Shown: one piece after another, positions 9,615 to 59,535 of the stretch | Layout of the letters: each line of letters starts with the position of its first letter | Position numbering within the stretch: the first letter of the stretch is position 1 | Source: an uncultured virus (IMG/VR IMGVR_UViG_3300037400_001705) | Taxonomy: Duplodnaviria > Heunggongvirae > Uroviricota > Caudoviricetes | Length of the DNA stretch: 64,000 bases | Direction: 5' to 3' (one strand) | Virus record (IMG/VR): IMGVR_UViG_3300037400_001705 | The notes under the pieces: model-generated | The model's database searches: none | What the model was told of the DNA's origin: nothing | Seen by the model: only the letters and a program-made list of their open reading frames with translations | Translations under genes and position numbers: made by a program

Positions 9615-9647
9615 AGTCGTAGCGTTTTTCTGATTTCTGTGTAAATT

Positions 9648-9765
9648 CGTGACCGCCTGAGACCGATTCTTGTTGTTCACGTTGTTGTTGTTGAGGTTGC
9701 CGTTGGTGCCGTTGAAATTCCAACTGTTGTTGGTGTTGTACCTCTGAGCAAACCACCGGTTGACG
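9648..9765 (-). repeat. DGR template repeat (TR)
   Basis: 118-bp ungapped match to 10419-10536; AAC-rich; all 17 mismatches fall at TR adenines. Confidence 0.96.
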
Positions 9766-9840
9766 GTATTAGAGCAAGTCTGTTGCTGGTATAAATGATA
9801 CCCTGCTCCCTTTTACTCATAGCCTCTGACACTGCCGCTC

Positions 9841-10251: not shown

Positions 10252-10366
10252 GTTCTGTTGGTGTTTGGTTTTCTTTCATTTTGTCACAACATGCCTCATA
10301 AGCATCTTCAAGGTATTGGCCGTAATCTTCGTATTGTTTTGACATAAGAGATTCATTTGGGTAAAA

Positions 10367-10390
10367 GGCGGTGTGACGGAGCACACCGCC
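10367..10390 (-). promoter_or_regulatory. GC-rich hairpin downstream of VR (DGR homing hairpin and/or terminator)
   Basis: GGCGGTGTG-ACGGAG-CACACCGCC, perfect 9-bp stem 10 nt after the target stop. Confidence 0.8.
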
Positions 10391-10400
10391 AATATTAATA

Positions 10401-15564: not shown

Positions 15565-16266
15565 CTATAATGTTATCGTCATTACGCCATTCTCTTCGTC
15601 CACACTGATGCGTTCCACTTCCTGTTTCAGTCCAGAGACAGTCAACACGCCGTCCTCAGCATTAAAGTTCATCTTGGGAAACAGCATTCCACCACTCGTG
15701 CCGGTATCGCCTTTATCTCCCTTGTCGCCTTTCTCGCCTTTCTCTCCTTGGATTCCCTGAGGGCCTTGCTCACCTTGGTCGCCCTTATCGCCTTTGTCGC
15801 CTTTCAGGGCTGCAAGCTGCTCGGGTGTAAAGTCTGCATAGGTAAAGGCATCACCTTTATCTCCCTTGGCAAAGAAGAAGAGTGCCGCACGGGCTTCCAC
15901 GTCTTTCTCCTTAAACTCATCCCACTCCTGCAATACAGGGTCGTTACTCGTCGTGACCACTACTTGGCAGTCCCACTGAGAGCGATACTGCGATTGGTCG
16001 GGATTGACCACGACGACCTCTACACCATAGCAACCAGTAGGCAGCGTACCTGTGTCGGTTATCCTCAGCAGATTGCCGTCAACAGTTGGCGTATAGCTGT
16101 ACTTCTTGATTCTCCCAACAAGATTCACTGTTACCAGCGCGTTAGCGTCGGGGTAATACGGAACGGCCTCTATCTGCTCCTGCTCCGTCATCACCTCCTG
16201 CTCCAAAGGTATGAGCAACGTCTGTGTGTTGCCATATACCCAATAGACTTTTTTGTTATCTTCCAT
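15565..16266 (-). CDS. collagen-repeat baseplate/fibre protein
   Basis: [22 protein letters not shown]. Confidence 0.8.
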
Positions 16267-30000: not shown

Positions 30001-30240
30001 CTTCTCGTCTGCTGTAAGAGTTTTGGCACCTCTTAGTTCTGATATACGCTTCTGGGTAACATATATCTTGTCATAGACGTTGGAAATATCCAAGATGTTC
30101 TTATAGACATTCTTCATCTCTACTGCGTCATCAGTAAGCATACCTGCCAGCTTCTCAGAGTTGCGCATCAGCTTTTCAAGAACACCTGAAATCTCGTCTC
30201 TTACGCCAAGTTCAAACCAAAGTTTATCTGCTGCTGCCAT
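24073..30240 (-). CDS. tape measure protein
   Basis: 2055 aa, helical; LAIESP.TF.EL, RLILAYGQV, GQELRQFTEAGIP. Confidence 0.92.
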   Translation of the reverse strand: MAAADKLWFELGVRDEISGVLEKLMRNSEKLAGMLTDDAVEMKNVYKNILDISNVYDKIYVTQKRISELRGAKTLTADEKKGLKEMSKELENVRKEFAAILKNPDRATSRGEAQFEKTRLNIELMLKDTLRYVDNIEAKEAAEAKNAANESRRIDELKAKYYELQRYRKQLSDAIVGAAPGTDTSGSVSIINSISARMSAVKRAERNGSGMPASASGADYEEFLRRVKTEMSGLTSATNDYNSRLETNKQIQSALNKLSADAISQQKIAGIRKQAVEYAALGRKIQEIQNLMHQVSYENGLLAAGRITTPTWTKEKVTEELNAIQRRYNETHAAGKQRELDDAAAMNQRTNAAKKAAEAVGMLAHVNEGLISSYNRIAEAGNKANRISIQIRNQIGTYAGLYGLERILKSVITIGGQFEFQHVALQNILGDIEQANTLYMQLQDLAIESPKTFMELTAYTKQLSAYQIPYKELFDTTKRLADISTGLGVDMQRLILAYGQVRSAAVLRGQELRQFTEAGIPMVQKLSEKFSDLNGRMVTTGEVFELISKRAVPFKMVQEVLWDMTNEGGQFFDMQSKLADTLYGKYQKLQDSWQIMLGRIADGEGVMGSGLKYILELIVSIVSMADTLTPMLSGVAIAKLGKYAISGVGSSIDKASGNTAIKNMQLAKFKEANRLERERVLLGRELTKEEKRLVRTKSELKSEEYYILALEKEISTQKAYQLMQEGKLTKTHFRRLLQLQGYTVEQRKQIMNGNTMLLQQEKSMASKMGNGALSLVGGWWGVAFATIGGIYSLYERASEQAKRASELAGSATGSMLEQLGRVNNIYNSLNKERPKNADEMASAVERMTNALKNSGNYSEEIDKQIQGADSLTEKYRILFGELERVSNEYLIMRDNVQAYIAAANQSGEGNWFTQLFNDNMAEDLADWSKANVAKNVAKKSVDRLSAAMKVQLELFYKEIGAWNEEKMASLDWQSLYDKLTDIGRGNFKNFLNARRQTDFDDEVYESIKKYSNALDALKNKEAEVDTQMQEYADHIEIALNETLKAQGLNPATIAEWDNEGLMKFRDSVNDVLNSYELDGETKERFRDKLYSQLLSEPMIVKVKALPVIEQDALAPWQQDLANYFEKNKIRITVDAQSSLEKVEKDLQNKHKEMQESIERNGKILIKFGFDLSSLPQDIENGLTPLAPEWRSYIGKVLQDYNNDKAEDAKIVQAGKDLGLNINKKSTSGGGNKKDTVLEALKNRVDLYKKFYSELENARKLYGSGATDYLKANGFAEVFGWNLGDVTNYRQSLDKLTKGFNANTEARKKFISSVDADKVSQQRKSDTDAINKLNSELKTQLSMLSEQYDTYKKIYQLTGNQQGAMTIAFGGGVQSLTYKDELIRQMREALAANPQGTLKAEDVFAMDKNAFAKTFGENSKMFSELYEAYAANEKKIKQETLQLMEDAVSKNRTIAQQIEDENRRYERQLELIKQINDPTLRQQAEAGVTQEHNEKVAHLQFEQFKNNSNWVKIFDDLDRVTTETLTDLMTATDKFGHTAGLSVEDVKALQSALAKMREELANRNPFSVMGNALHNMRVLSRAERTHADGDIAGTELAKVLGIDPNSKVTKKQIRDAQKAANSDFSKGVNGLADKFNALANVLDPVIKLFDTLGMSGVGQALSVAQSGFAGAASGAQLFTALGASGPLGAAIGAGLSVVSSGLSALFAAHDNALEEEIQASKRRQEEMKNLTKNLETILTHTLGSVYYTKADEDMVKKMYDLLTHRRGYIEDRTYSQIKEANQSRSYYDAQKASLMVQQDELRHQIESERDKKDGDADKIRDMEQQIKELESEIRYFAEEMAKDLYGIDYKSWASGLADALVSAWENGEDAAEAYKKKVTEILREVGAKVIAQKYLEPLLEKNMEKFISYFESNDGKMDERGLAILAEMYSDADKAAAITTSFLDGMERLANQHGETFKDDGTSNASASIKNITESTADLIASYINAIRADTSANRATLMQLLVIAQTQTEMPVIARAQLVQLEQIARNTKINADAAADIYKLLHNLAPDGQSIKVR

Positions 30241-40635: not shown

Positions 40636-40667
40636 TTTGTGAGATAAGAAAGTATTACCTATCTTTG
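40636..40667 (+). promoter_or_regulatory. consensus Bacteroidota promoter
   Basis: TTTG-N20-TATCTTTG. Confidence 0.8.
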
Positions 40668-40691
40668 CAAAGTCTTAAATATTTATTTTAT

Positions 40692-41693
40692 ATGGAAGAA
40701 ATTTGGAAAGATATTAAAGGTTATGAAGGACTCTATCAGGTATCAACGCTTGGTAGAGTTAGGTCTGTCTCACGTGAGGTTATAGACAGTATTGGCAGGC
40801 ACTCTATTAAAGAGGGCAGAATACTTTCTCTAAGAAATTCCACTCAGACTGGTTATCCTACGACTAATTTAACAAAGGACGGGAAATGTGCATCGTTCAA
40901 CGTTCATCGACTTGTTGCAGAAGCATTTATTCCTAACCCGAATAATCTTCCTTGTGTAAACCACAAAGACGAATCAAGGAACAATAATATTGTTAGCAAT
41001 CTTGAATGGTGCTCGTATAGATATAACAATACTTACGGAACCGCTGTGAAAAGAAGAAATGAAAGTCTTGTCAGATTTTACGAAAAACACAATGAACTTC
41101 TTTCTCCAGTCGTTCAATATTCAAAATCTGGTGAAATTATATGTGAGTATAGGAGTATTCGAGAGGCTGAGAAGATTATTGGACTTGAAAAGTCATCTGG
41201 TATTTCTGCCTGCTGTCACGGAAAACTCAAAATCGCTTATGGCTTTGTGTGGAGATTTAAAGGCGAGCCGTTTTCCATCGAAGAATACAAGCCAAAGCGT
41301 CATCAGAAATTCGTCATCAAGCGTGATGCTAACGGTGAAGAGATTGCGAGATATACAAGCATGTCTGCTGCCGCAACCGCAAACGGATTTGACAGAAAGT
41401 TACTCAGAAAGACAAATTCTATCAATGGCTACACATACGATGTAGAGAAGAAAGAGAATGAATATATCCCAAAAGGACACAAAGGCCCACGCCCAGACCT
41501 TATAGACAAAGGAACGAAGAAAGTGTATCAGTACACAAAAGACGGAAAGTTTGTAGCAGAATATAATAGTATCAAAGAAGCTGCAATAGCCATGGGCGGC
41601 ATAAAGCGTTCATCGGATATTATAAATTGCGCGAAAGGCAATCTTCGCTCTGCATTTGGATTTGATTGGAGATATAATAAAAAGAAAAAATAA
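40692..41693 (+). CDS. NUMOD4-HNH homing endonuclease with NUMOD1-like repeats
   Basis: EIWKDIKGYEGLYQVS.LGRVRS; VHRLVAEAF..VNHKDE...NLEW; repeated VxQYxKxG..YxSIxEA. Confidence 0.9.
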   Translation: MEEIWKDIKGYEGLYQVSTLGRVRSVSREVIDSIGRHSIKEGRILSLRNSTQTGYPTTNLTKDGKCASFNVHRLVAEAFIPNPNNLPCVNHKDESRNNNIVSNLEWCSYRYNNTYGTAVKRRNESLVRFYEKHNELLSPVVQYSKSGEIICEYRSIREAEKIIGLEKSSGISACCHGKLKIAYGFVWRFKGEPFSIEEYKPKRHQKFVIKRDANGEEIARYTSMSAAATANGFDRKLLRKTNSINGYTYDVEKKENEYIPKGHKGPRPDLIDKGTKKVYQYTKDGKFVAEYNSIKEAAIAMGGIKRSSDIINCAKGNLRSAFGFDWRYNKKKK

Positions 41694-43824: not shown

Positions 43825-44067
43825 TCATTTTATTTGCATTTCTTTCATTATTTCGTCATAATCTGTAATGACACTTTTCAGAGGATTCTTATACTTTCCT
43901 TCATAGTTGACGCATCTATATATGACACCAGAGATATTGCCGTTTGGCCCCTTTATGGTACCCTTATCGGCCTTATGCTTCTCACGCTCACACAGCAGCC
44001 GCATCTTTTGTGTACAAGTAGCACAGTTGGCCTTGTCTTGTGGGAAATCGTCAATGGTCAAATACAT
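43825..44067 (-). CDS. hypothetical protein
   Basis: ORF coupled to the helicase stop (TGATG). Confidence 0.6.
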   Translation of the reverse strand: MYLTIDDFPQDKANCATCTQKMRLLCEREKHKADKGTIKGPNGNISGVIYRCVNYEGKYKNPLKSVITDYDEIMKEMQIK

Positions 44068-45590
44068 CAGTCATCCTCTTTAATGAACGTTCCTTTTTCT
44101 TCCACGTAGTCCACCTGCAAATTGGCATCACGAATGACAAACTTCTCTTTTATACGCTCGGCATTGCAGCCATAGACAATATAACTGTTGCCATCCTGCG
44201 TGCGTTTCTTGCCAAAACCGAGCTTACTCATGGTATGCCCGAACTTCTGGCCAGAAACAGGCTCTACGTCATTGTCCAAACAGAACTGTGTGAGGCTTTC
44301 AATCATTTCCGATGAAGGAATAAGGGTGTACTCTTCATGTACCGCATGGGCCTCTTTGCGCATCTGATAGCTGTTGACCCACGCCAATACGGGATTCATC
44401 TGCAACTGCGCCAACAATATCTGCCTGCGATTGCCCTCACTCGACGGAAAAACGAACTTCCTGCGCTTCAACTCCCTACTGCCCCTCAATATCCAGTTAA
44501 AGATACCGGGGTACTCGGCCACAAGTTCCCTCGACAAAGCGGGATTCTGCTTGTCTCTCGGAATGGTAATCTCAAAGCTGATAAACTGTAAGCGTCGAAT
44601 GAAACCAAGGCTCTGGTCATCACTATACGGCAACTCGTTAAGGTTGAATATCAAGAACGGAATATTGTAGTTCTCCCTTACGTCCTCGCCTAACTTCCTG
44701 TCCGTGACGCTCTCGCCAGATACGATGCGCTTAAAAACGCCCGTGCGCTTTCTGCCAAAGGTACGCTGGTCGCTATCCGATGACCAGTTGAAGATGGCTT
44801 CACGCAACAAGCGTCTGGCTCTCATACCCTCATCACCTGTGGCAGTCAGATCATCGTAGTCGAGTCCGCTGATACGCTCCTTGCCAAAGATACCGACGGC
44901 AGTATCATAGATGGTACTCTTGCCGTTGGCTCCTGCACCCAACAATATCAGGCACAACTCTATCTTCGCCGCATTTTTTCCCTCGTAGGGATTGTAGACC
45001 GTGCCGCGCTCCATCAATCCAAGACCCAAGAACATCTGCAATATCAGGCGGCTGTTCTTGTCGGGCAACACCTCATGCAGGAAGTTATTCCACTTGTTAC
45101 ACTTGGCGTTCTCTTTATACTCGTAAGGATGGTAGTACGTCACATGATACTCAGGACTGAAAGGAAACAGCCTGTACTCCCTCAAATCCAACACGCCATT
45201 CCTGAAAGCTATCAAGTCTGGACGCGGCACAAGAACGTTATAATAGCGGATGATGTCAACGAAGTATTTTTTGCAGATAGTCTTATCACCAATCATCGGC
45301 ACTATCCTCAGATGCTCCAAGAGAAGGTCGTAGGCGGTCACTATCAGCTCTTCGCGGATGGTGACATATATCTTGCCGTCAAAGAGGTAGAAACTGCCAT
45401 CGTAGTACTTGATAGCGGCTTCTTTGGCCATCTTTCTTATCTTCTCGATGAAGTCCAGTTTCTTATCTTGGTACTCTTCGGAAGTCCTGTAACCCCAGCG
45501 ACCCTTGAACTTCTCAAAGTTATAGTCACCACCGGAGCACAGTTGCAAGAGACTGGCAAAAATCTGATTGATAACTGTACTGTCTGTCAT
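44067..45590 (-). CDS. P4/D5-family primase-associated SF3 helicase
   Basis: IAFRNGVLDL (D5_N), GAGANGKST Walker A, FKRIVSGE, GFIRR. Confidence 0.9.
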   Translation of the reverse strand: MTDSTVINQIFASLLQLCSGGDYNFEKFKGRWGYRTSEEYQDKKLDFIEKIRKMAKEAAIKYYDGSFYLFDGKIYVTIREELIVTAYDLLLEHLRIVPMIGDKTICKKYFVDIIRYYNVLVPRPDLIAFRNGVLDLREYRLFPFSPEYHVTYYHPYEYKENAKCNKWNNFLHEVLPDKNSRLILQMFLGLGLMERGTVYNPYEGKNAAKIELCLILLGAGANGKSTIYDTAVGIFGKERISGLDYDDLTATGDEGMRARRLLREAIFNWSSDSDQRTFGRKRTGVFKRIVSGESVTDRKLGEDVRENYNIPFLIFNLNELPYSDDQSLGFIRRLQFISFEITIPRDKQNPALSRELVAEYPGIFNWILRGSRELKRRKFVFPSSEGNRRQILLAQLQMNPVLAWVNSYQMRKEAHAVHEEYTLIPSSEMIESLTQFCLDNDVEPVSGQKFGHTMSKLGFGKKRTQDGNSYIVYGCNAERIKEKFVIRDANLQVDYVEEKGTFIKEDD

Positions 45591-48583: not shown

Positions 48584-48594
48584 ACGATACGATT

Positions 48595-48726
48595 ATGAAG
48601 TACGTACAGAAATTCAGGGTTGCCTATTGGTACATTGTATTGGACGGCAAAGAGATTAGGTCAAACAAGTACGAAGGGACAGGTTATCGCCCAAAGATTG
48701 AAAGCGACCTGATTAGAATAGATTAA
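48595..48726 (+). CDS. 43-aa hypothetical peptide
   Basis: MKYVQKFRVAYWYIVLDGKEIRSNKYEGTGYRPKIESDLIRID; stop abuts the twister. Confidence 0.45.
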   Translation: MKYVQKFRVAYWYIVLDGKEIRSNKYEGTGYRPKIESDLIRID

Positions 48727-48798
48727 CACAGAGCGACGGCAGTACGATTGTGCTGCCGGTAATGTGGCCATCCTTCGGGATGCTGGTTGCAAGCCCAG
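48727..48798 (+). ncRNA. twister ribozyme (P5-type permutation)
   Basis: CACA-GA-GCGA-[P1 hairpin]-G-T^AA-TGTG-GC-[P3 CATCC TTCG GGATG]-CTGG-TTGC-AA-GC-CCAG. Confidence 0.88.
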
Positions 48799-48799
48799 A

Positions 48800-49450
48800 C
48801 GAACAACATTCAAGCGGTTAGAGCGTATGCGGAGCCTGCGAAGTACGCAAGTACGATGAACAGAGAGAGCTGCAGCCGTTACGTAGACGAAACCGAGGTG
48901 AACGAGTTTCACGTAGGGGAGTAGTTGAGCCGACCTGGAAAGATGGTGCAAGGGCTACGTTTTAGGACGTCCCCAAGATGGCTTTGAACAATTTATATTA
49001 CATGATTGATTCTCGCAGTTGATTGCGAGTACGATATAGAGTTGGCTACCTATCTCGAGTACGACTGTAGAAATGCAGTACGATTTATCAGAGGATAATT
49101 CGTGGTGGTTCCCGTCGAAAGGTACGATAACACATTTAATCACTTTAGGATGAATCGGGCCGTGTACTTGTGGAGTACGATGACCCCACCGCTACAGACG
49201 AATTAGATGTTTGTCTGGACGGATGGTGGAATCTTGCGCCAAAGTACGATGAACGGCTGCAATGAAAGATATTACGAGGTGCGAGACCTCAGCATAAAGA
49301 ACGGCCTGACAGATGACCAAATCTGTCACATTCCCTCGGTTGGGGCAACGACGGCCTACATTGTTAGGAAAGTCCCAGGTGAACGAAAGACGATAAAGAA
49401 CGAAGAGGGAGAGACTACGGGAGAGAGTGGAATTACATCTACTCTCTCTT
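48800..49450 (+). ncRNA. candidate large structured ncRNA 1
   Basis: No convincing ORF; many hairpins and long-range complementarities. Confidence 0.6.
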
Positions 49451-50024: not shown

Positions 50025-50303
50025 ATGGATAAGTTAAAGAAATTGCAGATGTTAGCCCGTGTTCTCAGAGAGCACCGCGGCTACAAAGGTAACAAAGAGT
50101 CAGACCATTCCAACAGGTTTGACTTCAAGTTTGACAAGAAGGGCGACATTTGTGGGCCGTACATAGACATCTATAATGCCGAGAAGGGTGCAAATCTCTT
50201 CCTGTGGCCTGATTTTATCGAGCTGTGTCACGGCTTGGGTCTGTCTCATTACATTACCTATGACCAATTTGACCTCAAAGAGGTGGTGCTACACATCTAC
50301 TAA
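50025..50303 (+). CDS. hypothetical protein
   Basis: MDKLKKLQML...; bounded by elements. Confidence 0.7.
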   Translation: MDKLKKLQMLARVLREHRGYKGNKESDHSNRFDFKFDKKGDICGPYIDIYNAEKGANLFLWPDFIELCHGLGLSHYITYDQFDLKEVVLHIY

Positions 50304-50358
50304 GTCTCTCGGCTCCTGATGGAGCCACATATTTTTCACCAATTTAAAAAACGAACGT

Positions 50359-50613
50359 ATGAAGAACAAAGTTTTAAGAACAACGGCAATTTTCCGTTGC
50401 ATCGTGACGCTCAAGAACGGAGCGCATCGCATTGTAAGGACAACGATTGACAATGTAGCCAAGTTGAATGCTGCACTTTTGCAGTACCGCGACTTTGGTC
50501 TGCTTAACAATCGCTATTCAGATTTCATGAAAGAGCTGGGCCTGGCTGCCTACGATGTTCTGTCCTGCAAGGTCATCAACGAACGGACAGGACAAGAATT
50601 GATGACGATTTAG
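50359..50613 (+). CDS. hypothetical protein
   Basis: ORF bounded by elements. Confidence 0.75.
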   Translation: MKNKVLRTTAIFRCIVTLKNGAHRIVRTTIDNVAKLNAALLQYRDFGLLNNRYSDFMKELGLAAYDVLSCKVINERTGQELMTI

Positions 50614-50670
50614 CCTTTATAGGGTGGGGACGTTTTGCCGCCATCCTACCACAAACCAATAACTTTCACG

Positions 50671-50838
50671 ATGGTAATAAATAAAGTAATCCGCGATAAG
50701 AGCGGTTTTTGGTATGTTGGCAGACTTTTGACCGCAGATCCAGACGGCGTGCCCGTCTTTCAGCGCCTGTCAGAACTCTATTGCCACAAGGGATGGGCAT
50801 TGAATTTCGCCCGTCGTATGTGTATCAAGCTATCGTAG
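50671..50838 (+). CDS. hypothetical protein
   Basis: MVINKVIRDKSGFWYV... Confidence 0.65.
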   Translation: MVINKVIRDKSGFWYVGRLLTADPDGVPVFQRLSELYCHKGWALNFARRMCIKLS

Positions 50839-50911
50839 CCTTTTCGGCATGGGTGGGTTTTATTTCGTTCGTTCGCCTGCCTGTGCTGCTATTAACCAAA
50901 TCTTTATTGTT

Positions 50912-51337
50912 ATGTTAAAATCAGAATTTTATGACAGAACGCACGTATCTCTCTCGGATGAAGAGTATGGTGCAGTAGAGAACATCTACAATCGTGTCCA
51001 GATGGACAAAGACGAGTTTTGCAGACTGTGGCTTGACAATCGCGACAACAAAATCATCAACGAGCTTGTGTCGTATGCCATGGGTGTCGAGAAAGCGAAT
51101 GCCGCATTAGACAAAGTAAGCAAAGAGCTGGAAGAGAAGTTGGCTGGAGAGTTAGCAGAGAGACAGAAGCACCTGCTGGACTTTGGCCGCAAGGTTGTTT
51201 CCTATCTTGACGACGAATCACGGCTCTACGACTTTTGTGTAGAAGAGTTCGGTCAGAACTTTGTCATCAAGGTCAAGCTGGAGTGTAACATCGACCTTGA
51301 CACCAACGAACGCGAGTATCTTGCAAAGATGCTGTAG
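50912..51337 (+). CDS. hypothetical protein
   Basis: MLKSEFYDRT...MDKDEFC. Confidence 0.8.
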   Translation: MLKSEFYDRTHVSLSDEEYGAVENIYNRVQMDKDEFCRLWLDNRDNKIINELVSYAMGVEKANAALDKVSKELEEKLAGELAERQKHLLDFGRKVVSYLDDESRLYDFCVEEFGQNFVIKVKLECNIDLDTNEREYLAKML

Positions 51338-51393
51338 TCTATTGAACTGGTAACAATTTGTCACCAGTTCACTATTCACCAACAATTTACAAT

Positions 51394-51609
51394 ATGAACA
51401 AAAAGAATTTATTCAAAAAACAGGCTAATGTTGCTGAATGTACCATCGTTTGGAAAGACTCTGGCGAGAAAGAAAATGTAATCATCAGCCTTGACGGCAG
51501 CGACAACGACGGCATTTTCTTTGTCTGCAATTCAGAGGAAGAGTTTGCTCAACTGACAGAAGATTCCAGCGGCGAAGATTTTGACATTGTTACATTCAAG
51601 ATTTTGTAA
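51394..51609 (+). CDS. hypothetical protein
   Basis: MNKKNLF...DDGIFF-like acidic domain. Confidence 0.7.
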   Translation: MNKKNLFKKQANVAECTIVWKDSGEKENVIISLDGSDNDGIFFVCNSEEEFAQLTEDSSGEDFDIVTFKIL

Positions 51610-51671
51610 GTCTCTCTATCATTTTCGTGACCTCACGAAAATGGTACATTATTCACCAAATATTATTACTT

Positions 51672-52046
51672 ATGAAGATTTTGATTGAGACACGCTCTCC
51701 AGAGAACAACAACCTCCTGCATCCTGTATATAAGCAGGTGATAGGAGAGAGAGAAATTCCGTGTGCTGACGTAAAGAAGATTGGCAACTGTTGGTATGCT
51801 ATCAATTATGGTGGCCACATCGTTACAGGCGTGGAACCTGAGCGTATCAAGGAAGTACGCACGAATAGCGGTCTACTTTTCAATGTACATTTCGACCACA
51901 CGGGTTATCTCCAAGGAAAGAAATTCTGTTGTGAGGCGTACAGAAATCCGAACAACGGCTACGGATCGTGTTATTGCACCCTTGACGGTATCATGGACTA
52001 CATTCACCAAGAGGAACGATTTGAAGCACGTCTCTCGCAGTCTTAG
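51672..52046 (+). CDS. hypothetical protein
   Basis: MKILIETR...; stop lies inside the hairpin of an element. Confidence 0.75.
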   Translation: MKILIETRSPENNNLLHPVYKQVIGEREIPCADVKKIGNCWYAINYGGHIVTGVEPERIKEVRTNSGLLFNVHFDHTGYLQGKKFCCEAYRNPNNGYGSCYCTLDGIMDYIHQEERFEARLSQS

Positions 52047-52076
52047 GACTGCACTATTCACCAAACATCAAAGAAT

Positions 52077-52313
52077 ATGGAGAAACTTTTGAGAAAACAG
52101 CTCCATCTTGTCGGCTCAGCTGGCACGTTGGAAAACCTTTGTGAGTACGCTAAGAAAAGACTTTACTGGTCGCAGTTCGAAACCTCTGAGAGTACACGCT
52201 ACGAATCCCGTATTGGTAAGGTGTACGATGTGAGTAGTTCTAACGGCCTTGTTTCTGATATGGTCATCATTCAGGGTAAAGTACGTTGTTCACTCTTTCG
52301 GATAGAGAAGTAA
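52077..52313 (+). CDS. hypothetical protein
   Basis: ORF. Confidence 0.7.
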   Translation: MEKLLRKQLHLVGSAGTLENLCEYAKKRLYWSQFETSESTRYESRIGKVYDVSSSNGLVSDMVIIQGKVRCSLFRIEK

Positions 52314-52316
52314 GCT

Positions 52317-52553
52317 ATGATGACGGCTTTCAGAAGCTCTCTTATATGGAGAGATACCGTTTCCTATGCGGTTAGCATCTTCTCTTTCATTATCCGTGGA
52401 GAGGGAGAAATGAGCGGACGAAAGTTTGCTGAACATATCCGTAATTATTGCGGATGCTCTGACGAAAAACAAAAGGTCATTCTTTCCGAGATTGAAAAGC
52501 ACATCGTGAGGATTGAGGCCACCTACAGAGGAACAAAGTATTACTGCGTATGA
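52317..52553 (+). CDS. hypothetical protein
   Basis: ORF. Confidence 0.6.
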   Translation: MMTAFRSSLIWRDTVSYAVSIFSFIIRGEGEMSGRKFAEHIRNYCGCSDEKQKVILSEIEKHIVRIEATYRGTKYYCV

Positions 52554-52708
52554 ATAACGGTAAAGTCAAGTGGCTCACGTTCACGGACAATCCCCAATGG
52601 GGTCGTTACTTCATTGGCGAGAGTGATTCTAAGGCAGAAGCCCACACCAAAGGAAAGGCGGCAAACAAAGGCCGCTACGTTGTTGAACGAAGAGTAAAGT
52701 TCAAGTAG
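52550..52708 (+). CDS. 52-aa hypothetical protein
   Basis: MNNGKVKWLTFTDNPQWGRYF...; ATGA coupling; stop is the TAG of an element. Confidence 0.6.
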   Translation: MNNGKVKWLTFTDNPQWGRYFIGESDSKAEAHTKGKAANKGRYVVERRVKFK

Positions 52709-52762
52709 TCTTTTGCGGCTCTTGCATGAGCCGCACAAACAACCCTTTAAAACTGAAAGAAT

Positions 52763-53650
52763 ATGGAAAGAAGAGAAAAAGTAAATGCAATCAGAAGTCT
52801 GGCTGTAAGTAGCGGACGGATGATTAGTATGGACCCCGAAAGCTGGGGCGAGCATCGCCTGAACGCTTTGGAATCTGAGCTGCAGGAGTTTCTTGCAAAA
52901 ATTCCCGAAGAGGTACGTGACGAGTACGAAGATAAGTACATCGGCAAATACAAAGAATGGCTCTATGCTATGAGCCGTTGTGTCTCTCAGATGGTGACGG
53001 GTGCAGGCGGTTGGACGTCTTCCATGCTTCGACGCAAGCAGAAGAACGACCAGTACGAGCGTAATGCCCGTGAACGTCTTGATAAGTGGGCCGAAAAGGT
53101 CATCAAGCGCTGCAATCGTCAAGAACGTCTGACCGGCTGGGCTGAGGTTGAACGCTTGCAGGAAAAACTCGACAGCCTTAAAGAATCCCAGGAGATGATG
53201 AAGGCTGCAAACAAGATTATCCGCAACAATAATCTTGCAGAGGTTGAAAAGGTTGACGAGTTGGTTTCCCTTGGCTTTAACGAACAAACTGCATTGAAGC
53301 TCATGGAGCCAGATTTCTGCGGACGAATCGGCTTTGCCTCTTACGCTTTGAGCAACAACCTTGCCACCATCAAGGACACGGAAGCCAAAATCAAGCGTCA
53401 TGCTGCAATGGCAGAGCGTGCGAGAGGTGGTGACGAGGTTCACGATTACCCTTGGGGAAAGCTGGTTGTTGCTTTCGGCGACGAACGCTACCGCTTCATC
53501 TTCGACGGAAAGCCAGCCCCGAACGTCATCAGCCTCATGAAGTCGAACGCTTTCAAGTGGAGCCCTTCAAACTCAGCGTGGCAGCGTCAGATTACCGCCA
53601 ACGCAAAGTATGCCGTGAAGCGTATGATTGAAGAGCTCAACAACATGTAG
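52763..53650 (+). CDS. DUF3560-like / polyvalent-protein-associated domain protein
   Basis: GFASYALSNN.ATIK; RFIFDGKP...LMKSNAFKWSPSNSAWQRQIT.NA. Confidence 0.7.
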   Translation: MERREKVNAIRSLAVSSGRMISMDPESWGEHRLNALESELQEFLAKIPEEVRDEYEDKYIGKYKEWLYAMSRCVSQMVTGAGGWTSSMLRRKQKNDQYERNARERLDKWAEKVIKRCNRQERLTGWAEVERLQEKLDSLKESQEMMKAANKIIRNNNLAEVEKVDELVSLGFNEQTALKLMEPDFCGRIGFASYALSNNLATIKDTEAKIKRHAAMAERARGGDEVHDYPWGKLVVAFGDERYRFIFDGKPAPNVISLMKSNAFKWSPSNSAWQRQITANAKYAVKRMIEELNNM

Positions 53651-53702
53651 CCTTTAGCCCGCCTTGCATGGTGGGTACCACAAACCAACAAATATTTGAA
53701 TT

Positions 53703-54017
53703 ATGAGAGTAACATTAGCACGGAATTGTGGCAACAATATTGTTGAACACATTATCTTTGACGACCCTTACAGGGCACAAAATTTCTACGGGACATATTG
53801 CGGCAAGGTAGCTGGCGTCGTGAAGTGCGAAAGCATCTACACTATCGGTGCAGGCGAACACAAAGAAGAAAACTGCTTCAACTGCCCGCTGCATCACTGC
53901 TGCCTATGCGAGAACCGCAAGTTCACAGACGAGAACGGCACGAAGTTCTACGTATCTGTGTGGGACACCACAAAGAAAAGCAACGAACAGAATGCTATCA
54001 AGAAACTCGAATTTTAA
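53703..54017 (+). CDS. Cys-rich hypothetical protein
   Basis: ORF. Confidence 0.7.
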   Translation: MRVTLARNCGNNIVEHIIFDDPYRAQNFYGTYCGKVAGVVKCESIYTIGAGEHKEENCFNCPLHHCCLCENRKFTDENGTKFYVSVWDTTKKSNEQNAIKKLEF

Positions 54018-54085
54018 GAGTAGTCTTTCACTATTTCGTTGACTCCGACGAAATAGTACTATTAACCAATAAAGCAAAAAAAACT

Positions 54086-54259
54086 ATGGAAGAAAAGACA
54101 ATTAAAGTAGAGGGCGAAATAACCCTCAACCTGCACGGAGGAAGCCTATGCACGGCCCTGCTGCGCATCAATGGCGAACAAAAGTATTTTACCTCCCAGC
54201 TGGGTAGCTCTGATCTCATGCAGAAAATCGGTAAACATATCCAAACTCATAGCGTATGA
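54086..54259 (+). CDS. hypothetical protein
   Basis: MEEKTIKVEGE... Confidence 0.6.
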   Translation: MEEKTIKVEGEITLNLHGGSLCTALLRINGEQKYFTSQLGSSDLMQKIGKHIQTHSV

Positions 54260-54543
54260 AGATTGAATTATTTACAGGAGCGAAGACAATCCAAGTAGAT
54301 TGTTTTGCCTGCGAAGAAAAGACGAGGTATCGCATTGCGGCTTATTATGGTGGTGTGTATATCAAAACGCTCTACACCTGCAACAGTGAGATAGAACGTC
54401 ACGAAATGATTTGCAACTACATGAGCCAAACGCACAATGCAGGATGCAAAAACTCTTCTCTTTACGTACGTATTGGCAGTGGCCTTTGCTTCTTCTATTG
54501 CGATGGCCTGATGATTATGGAAGAAGAAATCTATGACGTCTAA
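54256..54543 (+). CDS. hypothetical protein
   Basis: ATGA coupling. Confidence 0.65.
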   Translation: MKIELFTGAKTIQVDCFACEEKTRYRIAAYYGGVYIKTLYTCNSEIERHEMICNYMSQTHNAGCKNSSLYVRIGSGLCFFYCDGLMIMEEEIYDV

Positions 54544-54554
54544 AACATGCTGAT

Positions 54555-54884
54555 ATGAATATAAGTTATTATCTCTATCTCTCAACGGCAAACTGTCAGG
54601 AATCTCACTCTCTTAGAATCTGCTCGGATGCAAATTTGACAGTCATTCGTGATGCCATTTCAAACATTATACGTGCCATGTTTGAAAGACGGCCGCATTG
54701 GTATTCCGAGGAATACGTCAACTGTCAAGCTGACGAAATGACCATGCTGTTTGCTGACCTTCTGAAAGATGGCTCGCCCATCACTAAACGCAAATATCCA
54801 TTCTATCATCTTGGCTTTATCATCACAAATTATCCAATGTGGCCAGACAACAACGGTGGGTATCTGAGCGACTTTCATGTATAA
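54555..54884 (+). CDS. hypothetical protein
   Basis: ORF. Confidence 0.7.
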   Translation: MNISYYLYLSTANCQESHSLRICSDANLTVIRDAISNIIRAMFERRPHWYSEEYVNCQADEMTMLFADLLKDGSPITKRKYPFYHLGFIITNYPMWPDNNGGYLSDFHV

Positions 54885-54946
54885 GTCTCACACCATTTCG
54901 CTGACACCAACGAAATGGTACACTTTAACCCTAAAAACAAAAGAGT

Positions 54947-55129
54947 ATGACAAAAACAATCTTTATGAAAGTCCGCGTCGATTACGATGATGACGGACGT
55001 TACGGCTCATACGAGGCCGACAGCATGGTTGCCGACATGGTTGTAGAGCGTGCGCAGGCACACAACCACACCGTAGAGAACGGCATACGCATTGAGAAAA
55101 TCACTAATCATGGGATAGATAGTTATTAA
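54947..55129 (+). CDS. hypothetical protein
   Basis: ORF. Confidence 0.65.
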   Translation: MTKTIFMKVRVDYDDDGRYGSYEADSMVADMVVERAQAHNHTVENGIRIEKITNHGIDSY

Positions 55130-55148
55130 CCCTTAAACTTATGGGAAT

Positions 55149-55484
55149 ATGGAAAACAATGCAGTAAACAAGGACGCTCAGCGCATCCATGAAATTACGG
55201 GCCGACCAATGGCCGAGTGTGAAGAGCAGGCAAAGCAGATTGCCGAGTGTGTACGTGAAATGTGTGACCGTGTGGTGGAGTTCTACTATCTTAAGAAAGA
55301 CGGCACTACACGGCAGGCTTTCGGTACGCTTCAGCAGGAAGTTGTGATTGCTCATGTGACAGCTGACTCCATGAGAGAGCCAAAGCCTGACCTCGTAACG
55401 TATTTCGATACTGAGGCGCAGGCATGGCGTTCTTTCAAGAAAGTCAACTTCAAGAACTACGTTAAGCAGGAGCCACAAGCATGA
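55149..55484 (+). CDS. WYL-like SH3 beta-barrel protein (DUF2693-like)
   Basis: VEFYYLKKDGTTRQAFGTL...TYFDTEAQAWRSFK. Confidence 0.8.
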   Translation: MENNAVNKDAQRIHEITGRPMAECEEQAKQIAECVREMCDRVVEFYYLKKDGTTRQAFGTLQQEVVIAHVTADSMREPKPDLVTYFDTEAQAWRSFKKVNFKNYVKQEPQA

Positions 55485-55618
55485 CGGATTTAGCCAAAAT
55501 CCTGTGGTGGATTTTTATCGCTTCTCTCACGCTTGGCGTCTGGACACTACCAATCGTAGTGGTTCTCGTCATCATCCAAATGTATCTCAAAAAGAAGCAC
55601 CCGAATTGGTGCAAGTAA
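55481..55618 (+). CDS. small membrane peptide
   Basis: MTDLAKILWWIFIASLTLGVWTLPIVVVLVIIQMYLKKKHPNWCK. Confidence 0.6.
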   Translation: MTDLAKILWWIFIASLTLGVWTLPIVVVLVIIQMYLKKKHPNWCK

Positions 55619-55681
55619 AGTCTTAAGCCGTGCAAAGGACACGGCACTATTTATTGTCTAACCGTTTAAATAGTAAGAATT

Positions 55682-56590
55682 ATGAAGAAAGAAAAGAATG
55701 CCTACACCGTAGAGAATGCGAAAGTTCCAGTAGTACGCTACGACTATTACAAGCGTGAAACAAAAGGCTATCTGCATATCGACGGCGGGCTGGTCTACGT
55801 CACCGTCACGGCTATCTGCATCAACTTCAAGAAGCAGCAGATCACGACGGTTCTCACGGACAAGAACGGCAAGGAGTACAAGCAGGAGGGCACATACAAC
55901 CTCTATGATTCTCCTTCGAAGTTCGAGAATAACAGCCCCATGGAGCCGACAAAGAACTTCACGTACAATCTCATTAAGAACGCTGACTGGGGCAGGCTTG
56001 CCGAGTGTGCAGTATCCAACATCGACGAAGAGGATGGCAAGAAATCTTGCTACATCAACGTCTGGACGTTCGAGAACGGAGCAGCCCAACAGGTTCCAGC
56101 CGTCATCAACGAAATTTCCTGCGACGCTTACGAGAAGTGGCACCTAACGGATGGCTCGCTGCCCGCCAAGTTTTGGGAGAGCCGAGAAGATGCCTTTGCC
56201 TGCAACGAGTACCAGGTTACCGACAGCGACGGCGAGGTGTTTGTGGAGCAGGGCTACCAGATGCGCCTTCTCCCAACTCCTGCCCAGTGGGTCATCATCA
56301 AGCAGATGAGAGCACTCTTCGAGAAAGCCAAGGAAGCAGGACTTTACTTCGTTTGGGACAGAGCGTATTGCGGCAATCTCAAGGCTGTAAACTATCAGAA
56401 CGTCTACACCTTCGATTACGACGCTGAGAATTTCGAGGGTGGAGACCTCATCCCTGTCAATAAGGCTGCGCTTGCTGACACTGGCATCGACTTCTATGAC
56501 TATTGTGGCGACGAGAGTGACAGGTATGCGTTTGCCCTCAATCCCATGGCACGTCAGAAAAAGGAATGGCTTAAGAACCATGCCAAGTAA
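55682..56590 (+). CDS. hypothetical protein
   Basis: ORF of 302 aa. Confidence 0.85.
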   Translation: MKKEKNAYTVENAKVPVVRYDYYKRETKGYLHIDGGLVYVTVTAICINFKKQQITTVLTDKNGKEYKQEGTYNLYDSPSKFENNSPMEPTKNFTYNLIKNADWGRLAECAVSNIDEEDGKKSCYINVWTFENGAAQQVPAVINEISCDAYEKWHLTDGSLPAKFWESREDAFACNEYQVTDSDGEVFVEQGYQMRLLPTPAQWVIIKQMRALFEKAKEAGLYFVWDRAYCGNLKAVNYQNVYTFDYDAENFEGGDLIPVNKAALADTGIDFYDYCGDESDRYAFALNPMARQKKEWLKNHAK

Positions 56591-56647
56591 GTCTCTAAGG
56601 TGGCCTTGCATGGCCACCACAATTATTAACCAATAAATTGTAAGAGT

Positions 56648-57061
56648 ATGAATATTTCAATTAAACCAAATGATTACGTTCGGCCAACGGAGGTGCGTGA
56701 CGAAGTTGTGAAAAAAGTCTGCAATCATATTGTTTCGTATTTAGACAGACTTGAAGTTGACATGGAGATTAGTTTGCAAGGTGCGCATCCTGCTTTATTC
56801 TTTGGAGAAAAGGATGAGGACATGACACACTACAAGAATATGGCAAAAACTGTGCTCTCCACAGAAGAAAATTATATGAACGTGTACTATTACACACGGG
56901 TAAGAGGTTGCGAAATGCGCAAGGTTTTCAAACTGCTGCAAGAAGCTGGCTACTACATCTACTCTCTTAACGAAATGGGGTGGAGTTACGCTATTTCCAA
57001 GTACCCATACCGCAATATGTACAAAGCTGAGCGTGTAGAGTTTAAGTCATTTATTGATTAG
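56648..57061 (+). CDS. hypothetical protein
   Basis: ORF of 137 aa. Confidence 0.8.
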   Translation: MNISIKPNDYVRPTEVRDEVVKKVCNHIVSYLDRLEVDMEISLQGAHPALFFGEKDEDMTHYKNMAKTVLSTEENYMNVYYYTRVRGCEMRKVFKLLQEAGYYIYSLNEMGWSYAISKYPYRNMYKAERVEFKSFID

Positions 57062-57099
57062 TCTTTCTCCCTGCTTGCAAGCAGGGAACAACAAACCAA

Positions 57100-57580
57100 G
57101 TTTTGTTCGCTACGAGCAATCTCACGGCTCGCAGTTGCCATCAGTGAGTGACAGATGGAAAGACCTCCGTCCAGCTCTCCACTATCCGCCGGACGTAAAA
57201 TAAAGGTAGTGCGGTTCTGTGACACAACAAAGTACACGATGTGCGGCAGACGGCTCAGGAAAAGAGGCATAAAACCCGTCGAAACCACTTAGGGACGTAA
57301 AGGCAGTGGGGGTATGCAACCACCAAGAGAGTAACATCGGCTGACGAAGGAAAAGCAGGGTGCTCCTGAGACCATAGAGATGGATAGCGTTAGACCACAA
57401 CTGCGCGAACAACAACTAAAGGCTACCGACGCAGGTATAGTCGTAAAAGAATCCCGCAACCACCGAGCGTAAAAGGCCGACAGACCATAACTGCGGAAAT
57501 CAAAGGCTACCGTTGGACGATAACGCAAAGCGTAAGCCATGGAAAAACTCTTCACGAAATTTCGTGTTGGAATTGGCAAA
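57100..57580 (+). ncRNA. candidate large structured ncRNA 2
   Basis: No plus-strand ORF; hairpins, long-range pairings and internal repeats; bounded by two elements. Confidence 0.55.
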
Positions 57581-57636
57581 AGTCTCATGGGGAATGTGGA
57601 CGCACATTCCCTACTACTAACCAACTACACAAGATT

Positions 57637-58155
57637 ATGGCAAAGCTAAATGTCTACTCATTTGCCGACTATAACGCTGTCCGCTATCTTGCCCATCAAG
57701 TGAAGGATGGAAACGACAGCAGTATCAGTCGCGCAGCTCGTTACATGGCGCATCTTGTGTCGTGTATCGCTGACGAGCGGTGCGTTATCGTTCCTGTGCC
57801 TGGTCGTATAGGTGTCGCTCTCTACACAAAGGTTCTTGCCGAACGTATCTCTGAGCTGACGGGTGTGCGTGTCATGGACTGCTTAAAATGCAAGCCACAC
57901 ATGACGCAGTATCTCCGCAAGTACCGCTATGGTCTTGACAGCATGCGACCGATGGACTTTTCAGTTACCGAAAATGTTCCCTCAAACGTTATCCCCATTC
58001 TCATTGATAACGTCCTCGACACGGGAACAACCGTCATGTCCGCTATGCAGGCTCTTGACCGCTCTCTCTACGCTGTTGTGCTGGGCAACACACACAACTT
58101 CCTGCATTTCAATTATCCTATCAACCTCTACGAACAATCTCTCACATGGCAATGA
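57637..58155 (+). CDS. ComF-like phosphoribosyltransferase-fold protein
   Basis: VIVPVP; ILIDNVLDTGTT PRPP-binding loop. Confidence 0.8.
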   Translation: MAKLNVYSFADYNAVRYLAHQVKDGNDSSISRAARYMAHLVSCIADERCVIVPVPGRIGVALYTKVLAERISELTGVRVMDCLKCKPHMTQYLRKYRYGLDSMRPMDFSVTENVPSNVIPILIDNVLDTGTTVMSAMQALDRSLYAVVLGNTHNFLHFNYPINLYEQSLTWQ

Positions 58156-58364
58156 GCGTCAAGTACGAAGCCGTCTGCGAATCGGGCAATACGGATGCTG
58201 ACACCATCCGAACGTTCCCTGACCGCGAATGCGCTGACCTCTTTTGTCAGATTTGGCGTGCCTCGCATCCTGGCACCCATGCTTGGGTACGAGAGACACA
58301 ACACCGCCACATGGAACACAAAACTCTTGGCAGTTCCGTAATGACGGTCGAACTCTACGATTAG
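58146..58364 (+). CDS. hypothetical protein
   Basis: ORF. Confidence 0.65.
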   Translation: MAMSVKYEAVCESGNTDADTIRTFPDRECADLFCQIWRASHPGTHAWVRETQHRHMEHKTLGSSVMTVELYD

Positions 58365-58424
58365 CCTCAGTGTGCAGCGTGATTTTGTCACGCTGTTCCC
58401 AATAACCCCTAAATATATCAGAAT

Positions 58425-58745
58425 ATGACAAAAGCAGACAAATTGTACTTGGAATTGAAGCAGGGACACCCTAACCACCTGATTCTTATCAGACGTAATG
58501 ACTTCTATGAATGCAGGGAAGATGATGCAAAGATTGTGTCAAATGTTCTTGGTATCACATTGTCAAGACACACTACTGGGCTAAAGCATTTCTTCTGCTG
58601 TTTTCCGTTTCATGCGCTCGACACCTATCTGCCTAAGCTTGTCCGTGCAGGCTATAAGGTTGCCATCTGCGACCAGCTGGACGAACCAAAGAAACCCGTC
58701 AAGCGCGGTATTACAGAACTCGTCTCTTCAAACCCACTGAAATAG
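58425..58745 (+). CDS. stand-alone MutS domain I protein
   Basis: YLELKQ.HP..LILIR..DFYE...DA...LGITL; FP.HALDTYLPKLVRAGYKVAICDQ. Confidence 0.88.
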   Translation: MTKADKLYLELKQGHPNHLILIRRNDFYECREDDAKIVSNVLGITLSRHTTGLKHFFCCFPFHALDTYLPKLVRAGYKVAICDQLDEPKKPVKRGITELVSSNPLK

Positions 58746-58779
58746 GTGGGTTCACTATTAACCAAACAACATCATCATT

Positions 58780-59475
58780 ATGAAAAGAAAACTATCACTA
58801 CCCGTAAACTGTTGGGCAGCGGAAGATATTCCGTCCAACAAACTGATTGAAGCCAATTCCGACCATCTGAGTAATTCAGAATTACTCTCTATCATCATTG
58901 GTAATGGCTCCAACACAGAGAATAGTGTAGAACTGGCACGCCGCATCCTGTCAACGTGTGACAACAAACTGTCCAAACTGGCAAAGATGACGCCTAACGA
59001 CCTCTCTTGCTTTCATGGCGTCGGCAAACAGAAAGCGGCTAAGATTATGGCAGCTCTCGAACTCGGCCGTCGCCGTCAGGAAGAGCAGGCCATTGAAAAG
59101 CCAGACTTGGGTACGGCTGTACGCATCTATAACATGATGCACCCTATCATGGCAGACTTGGAGAAAGAAGAGTTTTGGGTGCTTCTCGCAAATCAGAACT
59201 TCAAACTGATAAAGAAATTCCGACTGTCGCAGGGTGGCATCTCTGAGGTGGCCGTGGATATTCGTATCGTCATAAAGGAAGCTGTTCTCAACAACGCTAC
59301 CATCTTGGTGGTCTGCCACAATCATCCGTCTGGTTCTCTACGCCCGAGCAAGTTTGACGACGACCTGACCTTTAGCTTACAGAAAGCCTGTCAACTCATG
59401 CGCATCAAGTTTATGGACCACGTTATCGTGACCGACGGAGCGTATTATTCCTATCACGAACAGGGCAAACTCTGA
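58780..59475 (+). CDS. radC: RadC/JAB-domain protein
   Basis: LSNSELLSIII, HhH GVG..KA, EEFWV, HNHPSG...PS..D, DHVIV. Confidence 0.92.
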   Translation: MKRKLSLPVNCWAAEDIPSNKLIEANSDHLSNSELLSIIIGNGSNTENSVELARRILSTCDNKLSKLAKMTPNDLSCFHGVGKQKAAKIMAALELGRRRQEEQAIEKPDLGTAVRIYNMMHPIMADLEKEEFWVLLANQNFKLIKKFRLSQGGISEVAVDIRIVIKEAVLNNATILVVCHNHPSGSLRPSKFDDDLTFSLQKACQLMRIKFMDHVIVTDGAYYSYHEQGKL

Positions 59476-59535
59476 TTTAGTCTCTCGTGCCCAATGGGTA
59501 ACCATTGGGTAGCCACTAACCAAACTTTTAAGAAT

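Follow-up and report, generated by a model that had tools for sequence, protein, structure and literature searches.

A structured non-coding RNA ahead of a ComFC-like phosphoribosyltransferase gene in a hairpin-bounded gene array of a rumen Prevotella phage

Introduction

Large folded RNAs of bacteria and phages without known function are few (GOLLD, ROOL, OLE and raiA), and each such class has led to new biochemistry. The raiA motif RNA (ModT; RF03072), which is large, pseudoknotted and not cis-regulatory, lies beside a gene for a comFC-family phosphoribosyltransferase (PRTase) and has no known function either. In the passages on raiA of PMC10861870 and PMC5737381, this RNA is described as trans-acting, as present in over 2,500 species, mostly beside comFC, and as lying downstream of comFC in 74% of cases. 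Here we describe a stretch of about 480 nt (positions 57100-57580, + strand) in 64,000 nucleotides of DNA from an uncultured virus (IMG/VR record IMGVR_UViG_3300037400_001705), the whole of which is referred to below as the window. It encodes a free-standing non-coding RNA with extensive structure, whose family is absent from Rfam, and the gene that directly follows it codes for a ComFC-like PRTase.

Several other described systems share features with this locus. GOLLD and ROOL are likewise large, complex-folded RNAs of no known function, often found in prophages, and ROOL was first obtained from cow rumen data (as summarized for these RNAs in PMC5737381). The STAXI (RF01728) and radC (RF01754) motifs are pseudoknotted candidates with repeated units, situated among genes of mobile elements of the single-stranded DNA (ssDNA)-binding, antirestriction, integrase and RadC types; the section on STAXI in PMC2864571 also raises the doubt whether RNA or ssDNA is the active form. 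In T4-type phages, PeSL cassettes consist of a short motif plus stem-loop bordering small accessory genes, with indels and replacements between close relatives (as outlined in PMC2839356 and PMC4122927).

Results

Helices maintained by compensatory changes

Homologous loci were collected via the PRTase gene: 42 from metagenomes, 10 from genomes and 1 of viral origin. Employing BLAST, an nhmmer profile and a covariance model (R1), we found that 10 of the 52 loci from metagenomes and genomes carry the RNA stretch, as 8 distinct sequences. In all 10, the RNA is immediately followed by a stand-alone PRTase gene, 56-90% identical to that of the window.

Helices H1-H5 and the pseudoknot helices PKa and PKb were canonical in 98 of 102 cells, compared to 28-45% when the partner 3' strand was slid by 1-3 nt. 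H1-H5 taken separately were canonical in 54/54 cells, with covariation; the counts were 14/15 for hairpin P2 (three sequence types), 19/20 for PKa and 25/28 for PKb, with changes on both sides. In a MAFFT alignment (A6), 94.6% of the cells of H2-H5 were paired. Changes on both sides occurred there in 7 of 15 pairs, relative to 2.1 +/- 1.1 after shuffling (0 of 500 shuffles reached 7) and at most 1 in the slid controls, a result that stood despite the misalignment of H4 by one column in three rows.

The RNA can be divided into a 5' domain (D1, 57100..57245), a 3' core domain (D2, ~57246..57535) and a variable 3' tail (57536..57580), all on the + strand. D1 is predicted to contain the hairpin P2 (57113-17/57127-31, loop YCNCACG), varying from CGAGC/GCUCG to GCAGG/CCUGU, and an H-type pseudoknot composed of PKa (57168-72/57191-95; CGUCC/GGACG or AGGUC/GGCCU) and PKb (57180-86/57205-11; CACUAUC/GGUAGUG or CACCGCG/CGCGGUG). 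There are two sequence types of D1 among the relatives, and the pseudoknot is common to both. At locus L008, D1 is replaced by an open reading frame (ORF) of 114 aa without family match (L008:3317-3661); this ORF runs directly into the conserved 3' domain, with none of the junction elements described below between them.

D2 is present in 10/10 RNA-bearing loci. Its predicted order is Pa (57249-53/57276-80), H1 (57254-56/57264-66), H2 (57285-89/57305-09), H3 (57311-13/57322-24), a conserved strand GAGUAACAUCGGCUGA between H3 and H4, H4 (57359-61/57371-73), a module GACCAYAACUGCG - linker - AAAGGCUACC, and H5. The stem of H1, which encloses the loop ARGAAAA, occurs as CUC/GAG, CGG/CCG, CAG/CUG and UGG/CCA; H2, with loop UAGGGACGUAAAGGC, as CCACU/AGUGG and CCGCU/AGCGG; H3, with loop AUGCAACC, as GGU/ACC and UUC/GAA; H4 as GGU/ACC, GGC/GCC and CGC/GCG; and H5 as CGUU/AACG, CAUU/AAUG and CGUC/GACG. 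The window carries two copies of the module. Copy 1 (57392..57443) comprises AGACCACAACUGCG (57392-405), AAAGGCUACCG (57418-28) and H5a (CGAC/GUCG, 57427-30/57440-43), and copy 2 (57482..57525) comprises AGACCAUAACUGCG (57482-95), AAAGGCUACCG (57502-12) and H5b (CGUU/AACG, 57511-14/57522-25). The 84 nt at 57418-57501, an insertion or duplication, are found in no locus but the window; the duplication in L008 is shorter and of a different kind. Complementarity of 57398-403 with 57132-37 (P3) and of 57405-12 with 57103-10 (P1) is conserved without covariation, with mismatches in some relatives. By pairing the 5' end with module copy 1, P1 and P3 together could close the molecule. The 3' tail, with a hairpin CACGA/UCGUG at 57553-66, is absent from L008, L011, L012 and L014.

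A first-pass annotation, made by a model from the letters of the window, had listed hairpins, long-range complementary pairs and direct repeats in this stretch, and all of them are present. Of its hairpins, CGAGC/GCTCG (57113/57127), CGTCC/GGACG (57168/57191) and CCACT/AGTGG (57285/57305) covary among the relatives, whereas CCATC/GATGG (57138/57154) is, by inspection, kept only in the lineage of the window; GACGG/CCGTC (57249/57276) corresponds to Pa. The long-range pair CAGTTG/CAACTG (57132/57398) is the conserved P3, but CTATCC/GGATAG was seen, again by inspection, only in the window's lineage. The direct repeats AGACCAYAACTGCG (57392 and 57482), each trailed by AAAGGCTACCG (57418 and 57502), belong to the two module copies. 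The annotation had taken the whole ~480 nt as one structured unit. The stretch is structured, but the conserved part is its 3' two-thirds (~57246-57535), and D2 is the constant unit of the RNA.

U-G pairs occur in H2, PKa, PKb and Pa, and they would become A-C mismatches on the opposite strand. The RNA is therefore read from the + strand, which alone fits these pairs. Judged from the alignments, at least eight helices, including the H-type pseudoknot in the 5' domain, are kept by compensatory changes, the general mark of a structured RNA. The homologue covariation proposed as a check in the first-pass annotation was thus found, and its idea of a structured RNA in a gene-like slot is supported by these changes and by the conservation described next; the lack of Rfam matches and of protein relatives of the longest ORF, reported below, also favours it.

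Conservation and coding capacity

Sequence conservation is higher in the RNA than at silent sites of the gene next to it. Relative to the window, the RNA core was 0.74-0.88 identical, compared to 0.41-0.73 for the third-codon positions of the adjacent gene; for L014 the two values were 0.85 and 0.41. Over 28 locus pairs, the nucleotide identity of the RNA core ranged from 0.72 to 1.00.

The family is narrowly distributed. A blastn search against the phages set gave no match to the RNA stretch, a search of viral_contigs returned just the one contig already known, and neither the nhmmer profile nor model R1 found the RNA beside the fused PRTases (see below) of 37-52% identity. Weak matches of R1 in L025, L029 and L050 (E 3e-4 to 4e-3) were rejected because they lie inside a 581-aa ORF and lack H2.

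The preceding gene (137 aa, 56648-57061, + strand) ends at its own stop codon at 57061, and in the gap 57062-57636 up to the PRTase gene the longest + strand ORF is 49 aa (the others being 45, 30, 35 and 36 aa). The earlier statement that no + strand ORF lies between the framing elements was thereby borne out. On the - strand there are ORFs of 76, 77 and 111 aa; no relatives of the longest were found among 5.8 billion proteins. Indels among the relatives are many and mostly not multiples of three, and some are whole inserted stem-loops.

Comparison with described RNAs and occurrence in RNA libraries

No Rfam family matched in the RNA region when 57095-57585 and 56900-57800 were searched with cmscan at E<=10, and none matched inside the RNA at five homologous loci at E<=5. 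The noise matches (E 1.3-9.9) were confined to the flanking elements and the PRTase gene. In the whole window, only Twister-P5 and one tRNA passed the Rfam gathering thresholds. The Rfam/Infernal search suggested in the first-pass annotation is therefore consistent with an undescribed family.

Like raiA, the window RNA adjoins a comFC-family gene. It differs from raiA in giving no match to the covariance model (at the E values just mentioned), in its reversed order, upstream of the PRTase gene, and in being phage-borne in Bacteroidota, whereas raiA is chromosomal in Bacillota/Actinomycetota. Moreover, raiA is widespread, whereas the window RNA is rare and has modular 5' domain variants. The models of GOLLD, ROOL, OLE and HEARO gave no match either, in the whole window at gathering thresholds or in the region at E<=10. 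Compared to GOLLD and ROOL, the window RNA is smaller (core ~290 nt, 450-480 nt in total), and no tRNA cluster is nearby; the sole tRNA of the window is 20 kb away. STAXI and radC are proteobacterial, have far smaller units and were not matched by model. STAXI is a tandem small pseudoknot, whereas the window RNA has one pseudoknot (PKa/PKb), and the module that it repeats consists of two linear motifs and a hairpin. The RNA arrays associated with UG27 reverse transcriptases, described in bioRxiv 10.64898/2026.09.22.753630 as units of ~150 nt beside the reverse transcriptase, were also considered and rejected, because the reverse transcriptase of the window lies 48 kb away and within a unit resembling a diversity-generating retroelement (DGR).

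All or part of the stretch was found in 20 public runs, 6 of which are RNA libraries. The rumen or gut metatranscriptome runs examined came from 4 studies, and 4/4 contained short contigs on the core (57209-57417). One RNA-library contig extends to 57581 and skips exactly 57418-57501, which corresponds to the single-module form. There were no such contigs over the 137-aa gene or most of the PRTase gene, an absence that carries no evidential weight. Heavy contig cover at 58600-58690 was due to cellular mutS of other organisms.

Junction elements and cassette shuffling

The stretch had been described in the first-pass annotation as framed by elements as if it were a gene, and copies of one composite element are indeed located at both of its ends. 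The element consists of AGTCT, a hairpin of variable sequence (8-12 bp) and ACTAYTAACCAA, the last lying 12-20 nt ahead of a start codon. In the upstream copy (57060..57099, + strand), AGTCT is followed by an 8-bp hairpin (57069-76/57079-86) and AACAAACCAA; in the downstream copy (57581..57624, + strand), by a hairpin (57589-98/57603-11) and ACTACTAACCAA. Roughly a dozen other junctions between genes, from 50.3 to 59.5 kb, bear the same element, which thus divides nearly all genes of the array. Positions on the + strand within the range 50303-59523 include 50303, 51336, 51609, 52030, 52706, 53648, 54022, 54884, 56590, 57060, 57581, 58722 and 59479. Each hairpin is a short, perfect palindrome (8-12 bp), with a sequence unrelated to that of the other copies.

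Locus L006 has the same upstream gene and a PRTase 90% identical to that of the window, and the RNA plus the downstream element are exactly missing: the sequence goes from ACCAA of the upstream element straight to what follows ACCAA of the downstream element. The cassette idea of the first-pass annotation is borne out by this locus. Since L006 lacks exactly the RNA plus one element, the RNA is a modular unit, and the downstream element, lost together with the RNA, belongs to the RNA cassette. Variants are also exchanged. L045 and L014 have RNA cores 99% identical and PRTases 60% identical; L011 and L012 have identical PRTases and RNA cores 72% identical. Together with its downstream hairpin element, the RNA therefore behaves as a cassette, with the ACCAA motifs of the two flanking elements as the sites of its gain, loss and exchange. 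Gene cassettes and the RNA cassette of the array alike show gain or loss in relatives exactly at ACCAA of the junction element, and the 137-aa gene, present in the window, is absent in L001.

With a motif and stem-loop at both borders and indels of relatives ending at the motif, the shuffling resembles, by analogy, the PeSL-bounded shuffling of T4-type phages. The host phylum and the motif sequence are different, and here one cassette bears an RNA gene. The present elements may be terminators, processing sites or recombination sites, and a promoter role is only conceivable. The Bacteroidetes -33/-7 consensus (TTTG-N17-23-TAnnTTTG) had no match at any element or near the RNA, a search to which phage-specific promoters outside this consensus would be invisible. 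For integron attC cassettes, which have R/L boxes, extrahelical bases, an IntI integrase and an adjoining attI, the comparison was by inspection; it concerned these short palindromes and two tyrosine recombinase genes, not typed as IntI, just beyond the end of the array.

The PRTase gene

The gene downstream of the RNA (57637..58155, + strand; ORF complete) encodes a 172-aa ComFC-like PRTase homologue of the type I PRT fold. Its best sequence matches are PyrR proteins (E about 1e-3, 22-25% identity), and it matches comF TIGR00201 at E 0.01, but its fold is closer to ComFC than to PyrR. In distant Prevotella relatives (L017, L050 and about 20 other loci), the PRTase is the N-terminal domain of a polyvalent protein of ~1200 aa that also contains ArdC-N, MutS-I and zincin peptidase domains (e.g. 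L050:3851-7534). In the window, the PRTase and MutS-I are separate small genes divided by junction elements. In the sections of PMC5512222 that deal with these proteins, Iyer et al. place the polyvalent-protein class in the early phase, directed against the host, of both phages and conjugative elements; they call the PRTases of this group in invasive elements ComFC-like and suggest that these may bind nucleic acids. ComFC itself is described as binding ssDNA (PMC9005727).

The phage and its gene array

The window is an integrated, siphovirus-like tailed phage of rumen Prevotella. Among its genes are that of the large terminase (at 37288), those of the tape-measure protein (24073-30240) and of large tail proteins, one for a reverse transcriptase (8388-9680) and, at 61359 and 62440, two for tyrosine recombinases. 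Its relatives occur in Prevotella metagenome-assembled genomes (MAGs) and in rumen metagenome or viral contigs. From ~47 to 61 kb, up to the integrases, mostly small + strand genes form a rightward run including a primase-like gene (52763-53650), a WYL_2 protein, a MutS-domain-I protein, RadC and DUF2851; a further DNA-handling gene, D5_N, is located at 44067-45590. The RNA stretch is part of this rightward early or accessory gene array, on its + strand.

In the same array, 8 kb upstream of the RNA stretch, there is a gene-poor stretch (48584-49206) with a Twister-P5 self-cleaving ribozyme (48727-48798, + strand; 46.1 bits, above the Rfam gathering threshold), followed over ~450 nt by about nine copies of AGTACGA(T) and just tiny ORFs. 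This is probably what the first-pass annotation had called its first non-coding cassette. Outside the array, the DGR-like unit (8388-11735, - strand) consists of the reverse transcriptase and a 123-nt direct repeat, 85% identical, with a template-like copy adjoining the reverse transcriptase (9648-9770) and another copy (10419-10541) at the 3' end of a 444-aa ORF (10401-11735). A large tail-protein gene (1258-aa ORF, - strand) contains a 63-nt repeat, six times, with a 21-nt sub-period (14294-15265), and a gene for a collagen-like repeat protein (15565-16266) adjoins it. Just past the terminase/portal region, a homing-endonuclease-like gene (40665-41693, + strand) encodes NUMOD4, NUMOD1 and I-HmuI-like domains.

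Discussion

The stretch is probably a functional structured RNA gene and not a cis leader. On the comparative evidence it represents a genuine new structured RNA family in a genetic setting of interest. The RNA probably acts in trans, as a folded RNA, rather than as the leader of the next gene. It is an even question whether its ends would lie near the flanking hairpins, set by termination or processing, with the hairpins being protective. More tentatively, and with the balance tilted against it, the RNA may work with the downstream ComFC-like PRTase. In that case, the single-stranded modules GACCAYAACUGCG...AAAGGCUACC (1-2 copies) would be the likeliest protein-binding sites, and the pair might serve phage establishment or counter-defence, a role suggested because the surrounding genes are RadC, MutS-I and genes of the polyvalent-protein type. 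A trans RNA with a ComFC-like protein is favoured in view of the precedents of PyrR with RNA, ComFC with ssDNA and raiA with comFC. The link between RNA and PRTase is nevertheless held to be rather doubtful, because the loci were sampled through the PRTase gene, RNA and PRTase do not vary together, and some PRTase genes lack the RNA.

Several observations weigh against this reading. The helices were proposed by eye from the alignment, anchored on invariant loop motifs, and counted afterwards with fixed offsets. The sample consists of 8 distinct, related sequences from few lineages, so the changes in the helices are not independent events. Minimum-free-energy z-scores were +0.65 for the + strand, +0.61 for the homologue L001 and -0.49 for the - strand; folding energy therefore lends no support, since the scores are not significant on either strand. 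With full-length sequences, RNAalifold recovered PKb, H5 and Pa amid doubtful long-range pairs and missed H1-H4, and on the A6 core it gave a different, weakly supported fold in which 2 of 22 pairs had changed on both sides. Both folds were set aside. The adjacency to the PRTase gene is biased by sampling because all loci were found through that gene. Among the fetched loci, the RNA was not found upstream of the PRTase in L006, L013, L015 or the fused polyvalent forms, and the divergence of the RNA does not track that of the PRTase (Spearman 0.18). For L006, L013, L015, L017 and L025 the search covered the fetched segments, so that a copy of the RNA may lie elsewhere on these contigs. RNA-anchored searches returned only two records, both already known. 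In the genomes searched, the RNA occurred in 1 of 151 of the genus (by model) and 1 of 401 of the family (by pattern), in both cases the MAG already known. Finally, the contigs from RNA libraries may reflect DNA carry-over, give no strand, ends or level, and come from runs chosen via this very stretch.

PyrR binds RNA and controls the pyr leader, and the attenuator of the pyr operon (RF00515) is likewise an RNA ahead of a gene of the PRT fold; in the window that gene has PyrR as its best sequence matches. The stretch could accordingly be imagined as a cis leader or attenuator of the PRTase gene, with a PyrR- or ComFC-like protein or a metabolite (phosphoribosyl pyrophosphate or a nucleotide) binding the RNA and controlling read-through of the hairpin at 57589-57611. 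The position directly 5' of the gene in 10/10 RNA-bearing loci would fit such a leader, as would the hairpin between RNA and start codon, which in L011 is followed by TTTTT. However, the hairpin plus ACTAYTAACCAA is a generic junction of the array, not specific to the PRTase gene, and L006 has the junction unchanged and a 90% identical gene without the RNA. For these reasons we consider the attenuator improbable. The independent swapping of RNA variants, the protein fold nearer to ComFC and the lack of any match to the Rfam PyrR-site and riboswitch models at E<=10 also argue against it. Moreover, an RNA of 300-480 nt with pseudoknots is far bigger than known attenuator sites, about ten times the size of the PyrR site. 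A likeness of CCAUAGAGRYGG to the PyrR site was judged superficial; it is not kept in L045-type sequences and has no model match.

Covariation alone does not distinguish RNA from ssDNA. The stretch might thus be an ssDNA structure or DNA site, such as a signal for replication or priming, a site of recombination, or a protein-binding origin with GACCAYAAC / AAAGGCTACC iterons, and the DNA-handling genes around it (primase-like, D5_N, RadC and MutS-I), the ssDNA binding of ComFC and the repetition of the motif pair in two lineages are in keeping with this. We regard it as very unlikely. Several conserved pairs are G-U (G-T in DNA), A-rich loops are typical of RNA, and DNA signals do not usually combine a pseudoknot with numerous short helices whose loops are conserved. 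Contigs of the core were present in four RNA libraries, and a tailed double-stranded DNA phage does not enter as ssDNA.

Likewise very unlikely is a selfish or self-processing RNA element, intron-like or a new self-cleaving ribozyme, inserted between genes and without phage function. Its clean presence or absence between close relatives would suit such an element, and the phage does carry a Twister-P5 ribozyme in another gene-poor stretch of the array and a NUMOD homing-endonuclease-like gene. No intron or ribozyme model matched in the region at E<=10, however, and an intron is excluded because no gene is split: the 137-aa ORF stops at 57061 and the PRTase ORF is complete. The borders of the indels are the generic junction motif common to protein-coding cassettes, and the core is strongly conserved even in relatives in which the gene beside it is 56-66% identical. 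A decayed protein gene, the alternative named in the first-pass annotation, or a neutral spacer would suit the gene-like slot and the - strand ORFs of 76-111 aa; this reading is largely refuted already by the absence of protein relatives, the frame-breaking indels, conservation beyond that of the silent sites of the next gene and compensatory changes across eight helices.

The locus shows that the shuffling of hairpin-bounded cassettes in this phage group extends to RNA genes, on the same pattern as for protein genes. A bolder proposal, which we hold to be unlikely but worth stating, is that the locus represents a second case, evolved independently of raiA/ModT, in which a large RNA with pseudoknots is partnered with a PRTase of the ComFC family, here within a counter-defence array of a phage and packaged as a mobile cassette with hairpin borders. 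If so, ComFC-type PRTases would be RNA-partnered proteins in general, the RNA might serve as scaffold or substrate or act as a decoy against host systems of the PRTase/DprA type, and accessory-gene cassettes of phages could bear RNA genes besides protein genes. The window RNA is small enough for probing, shows clear covariation and has a defined setting, among early or accessory genes of the polyvalent-protein type in rumen Prevotella phages. Should the link to the PRTase be real, it would provide an independent and genetically simpler system for ComFC-like proteins with a structured RNA, a question still open for raiA.

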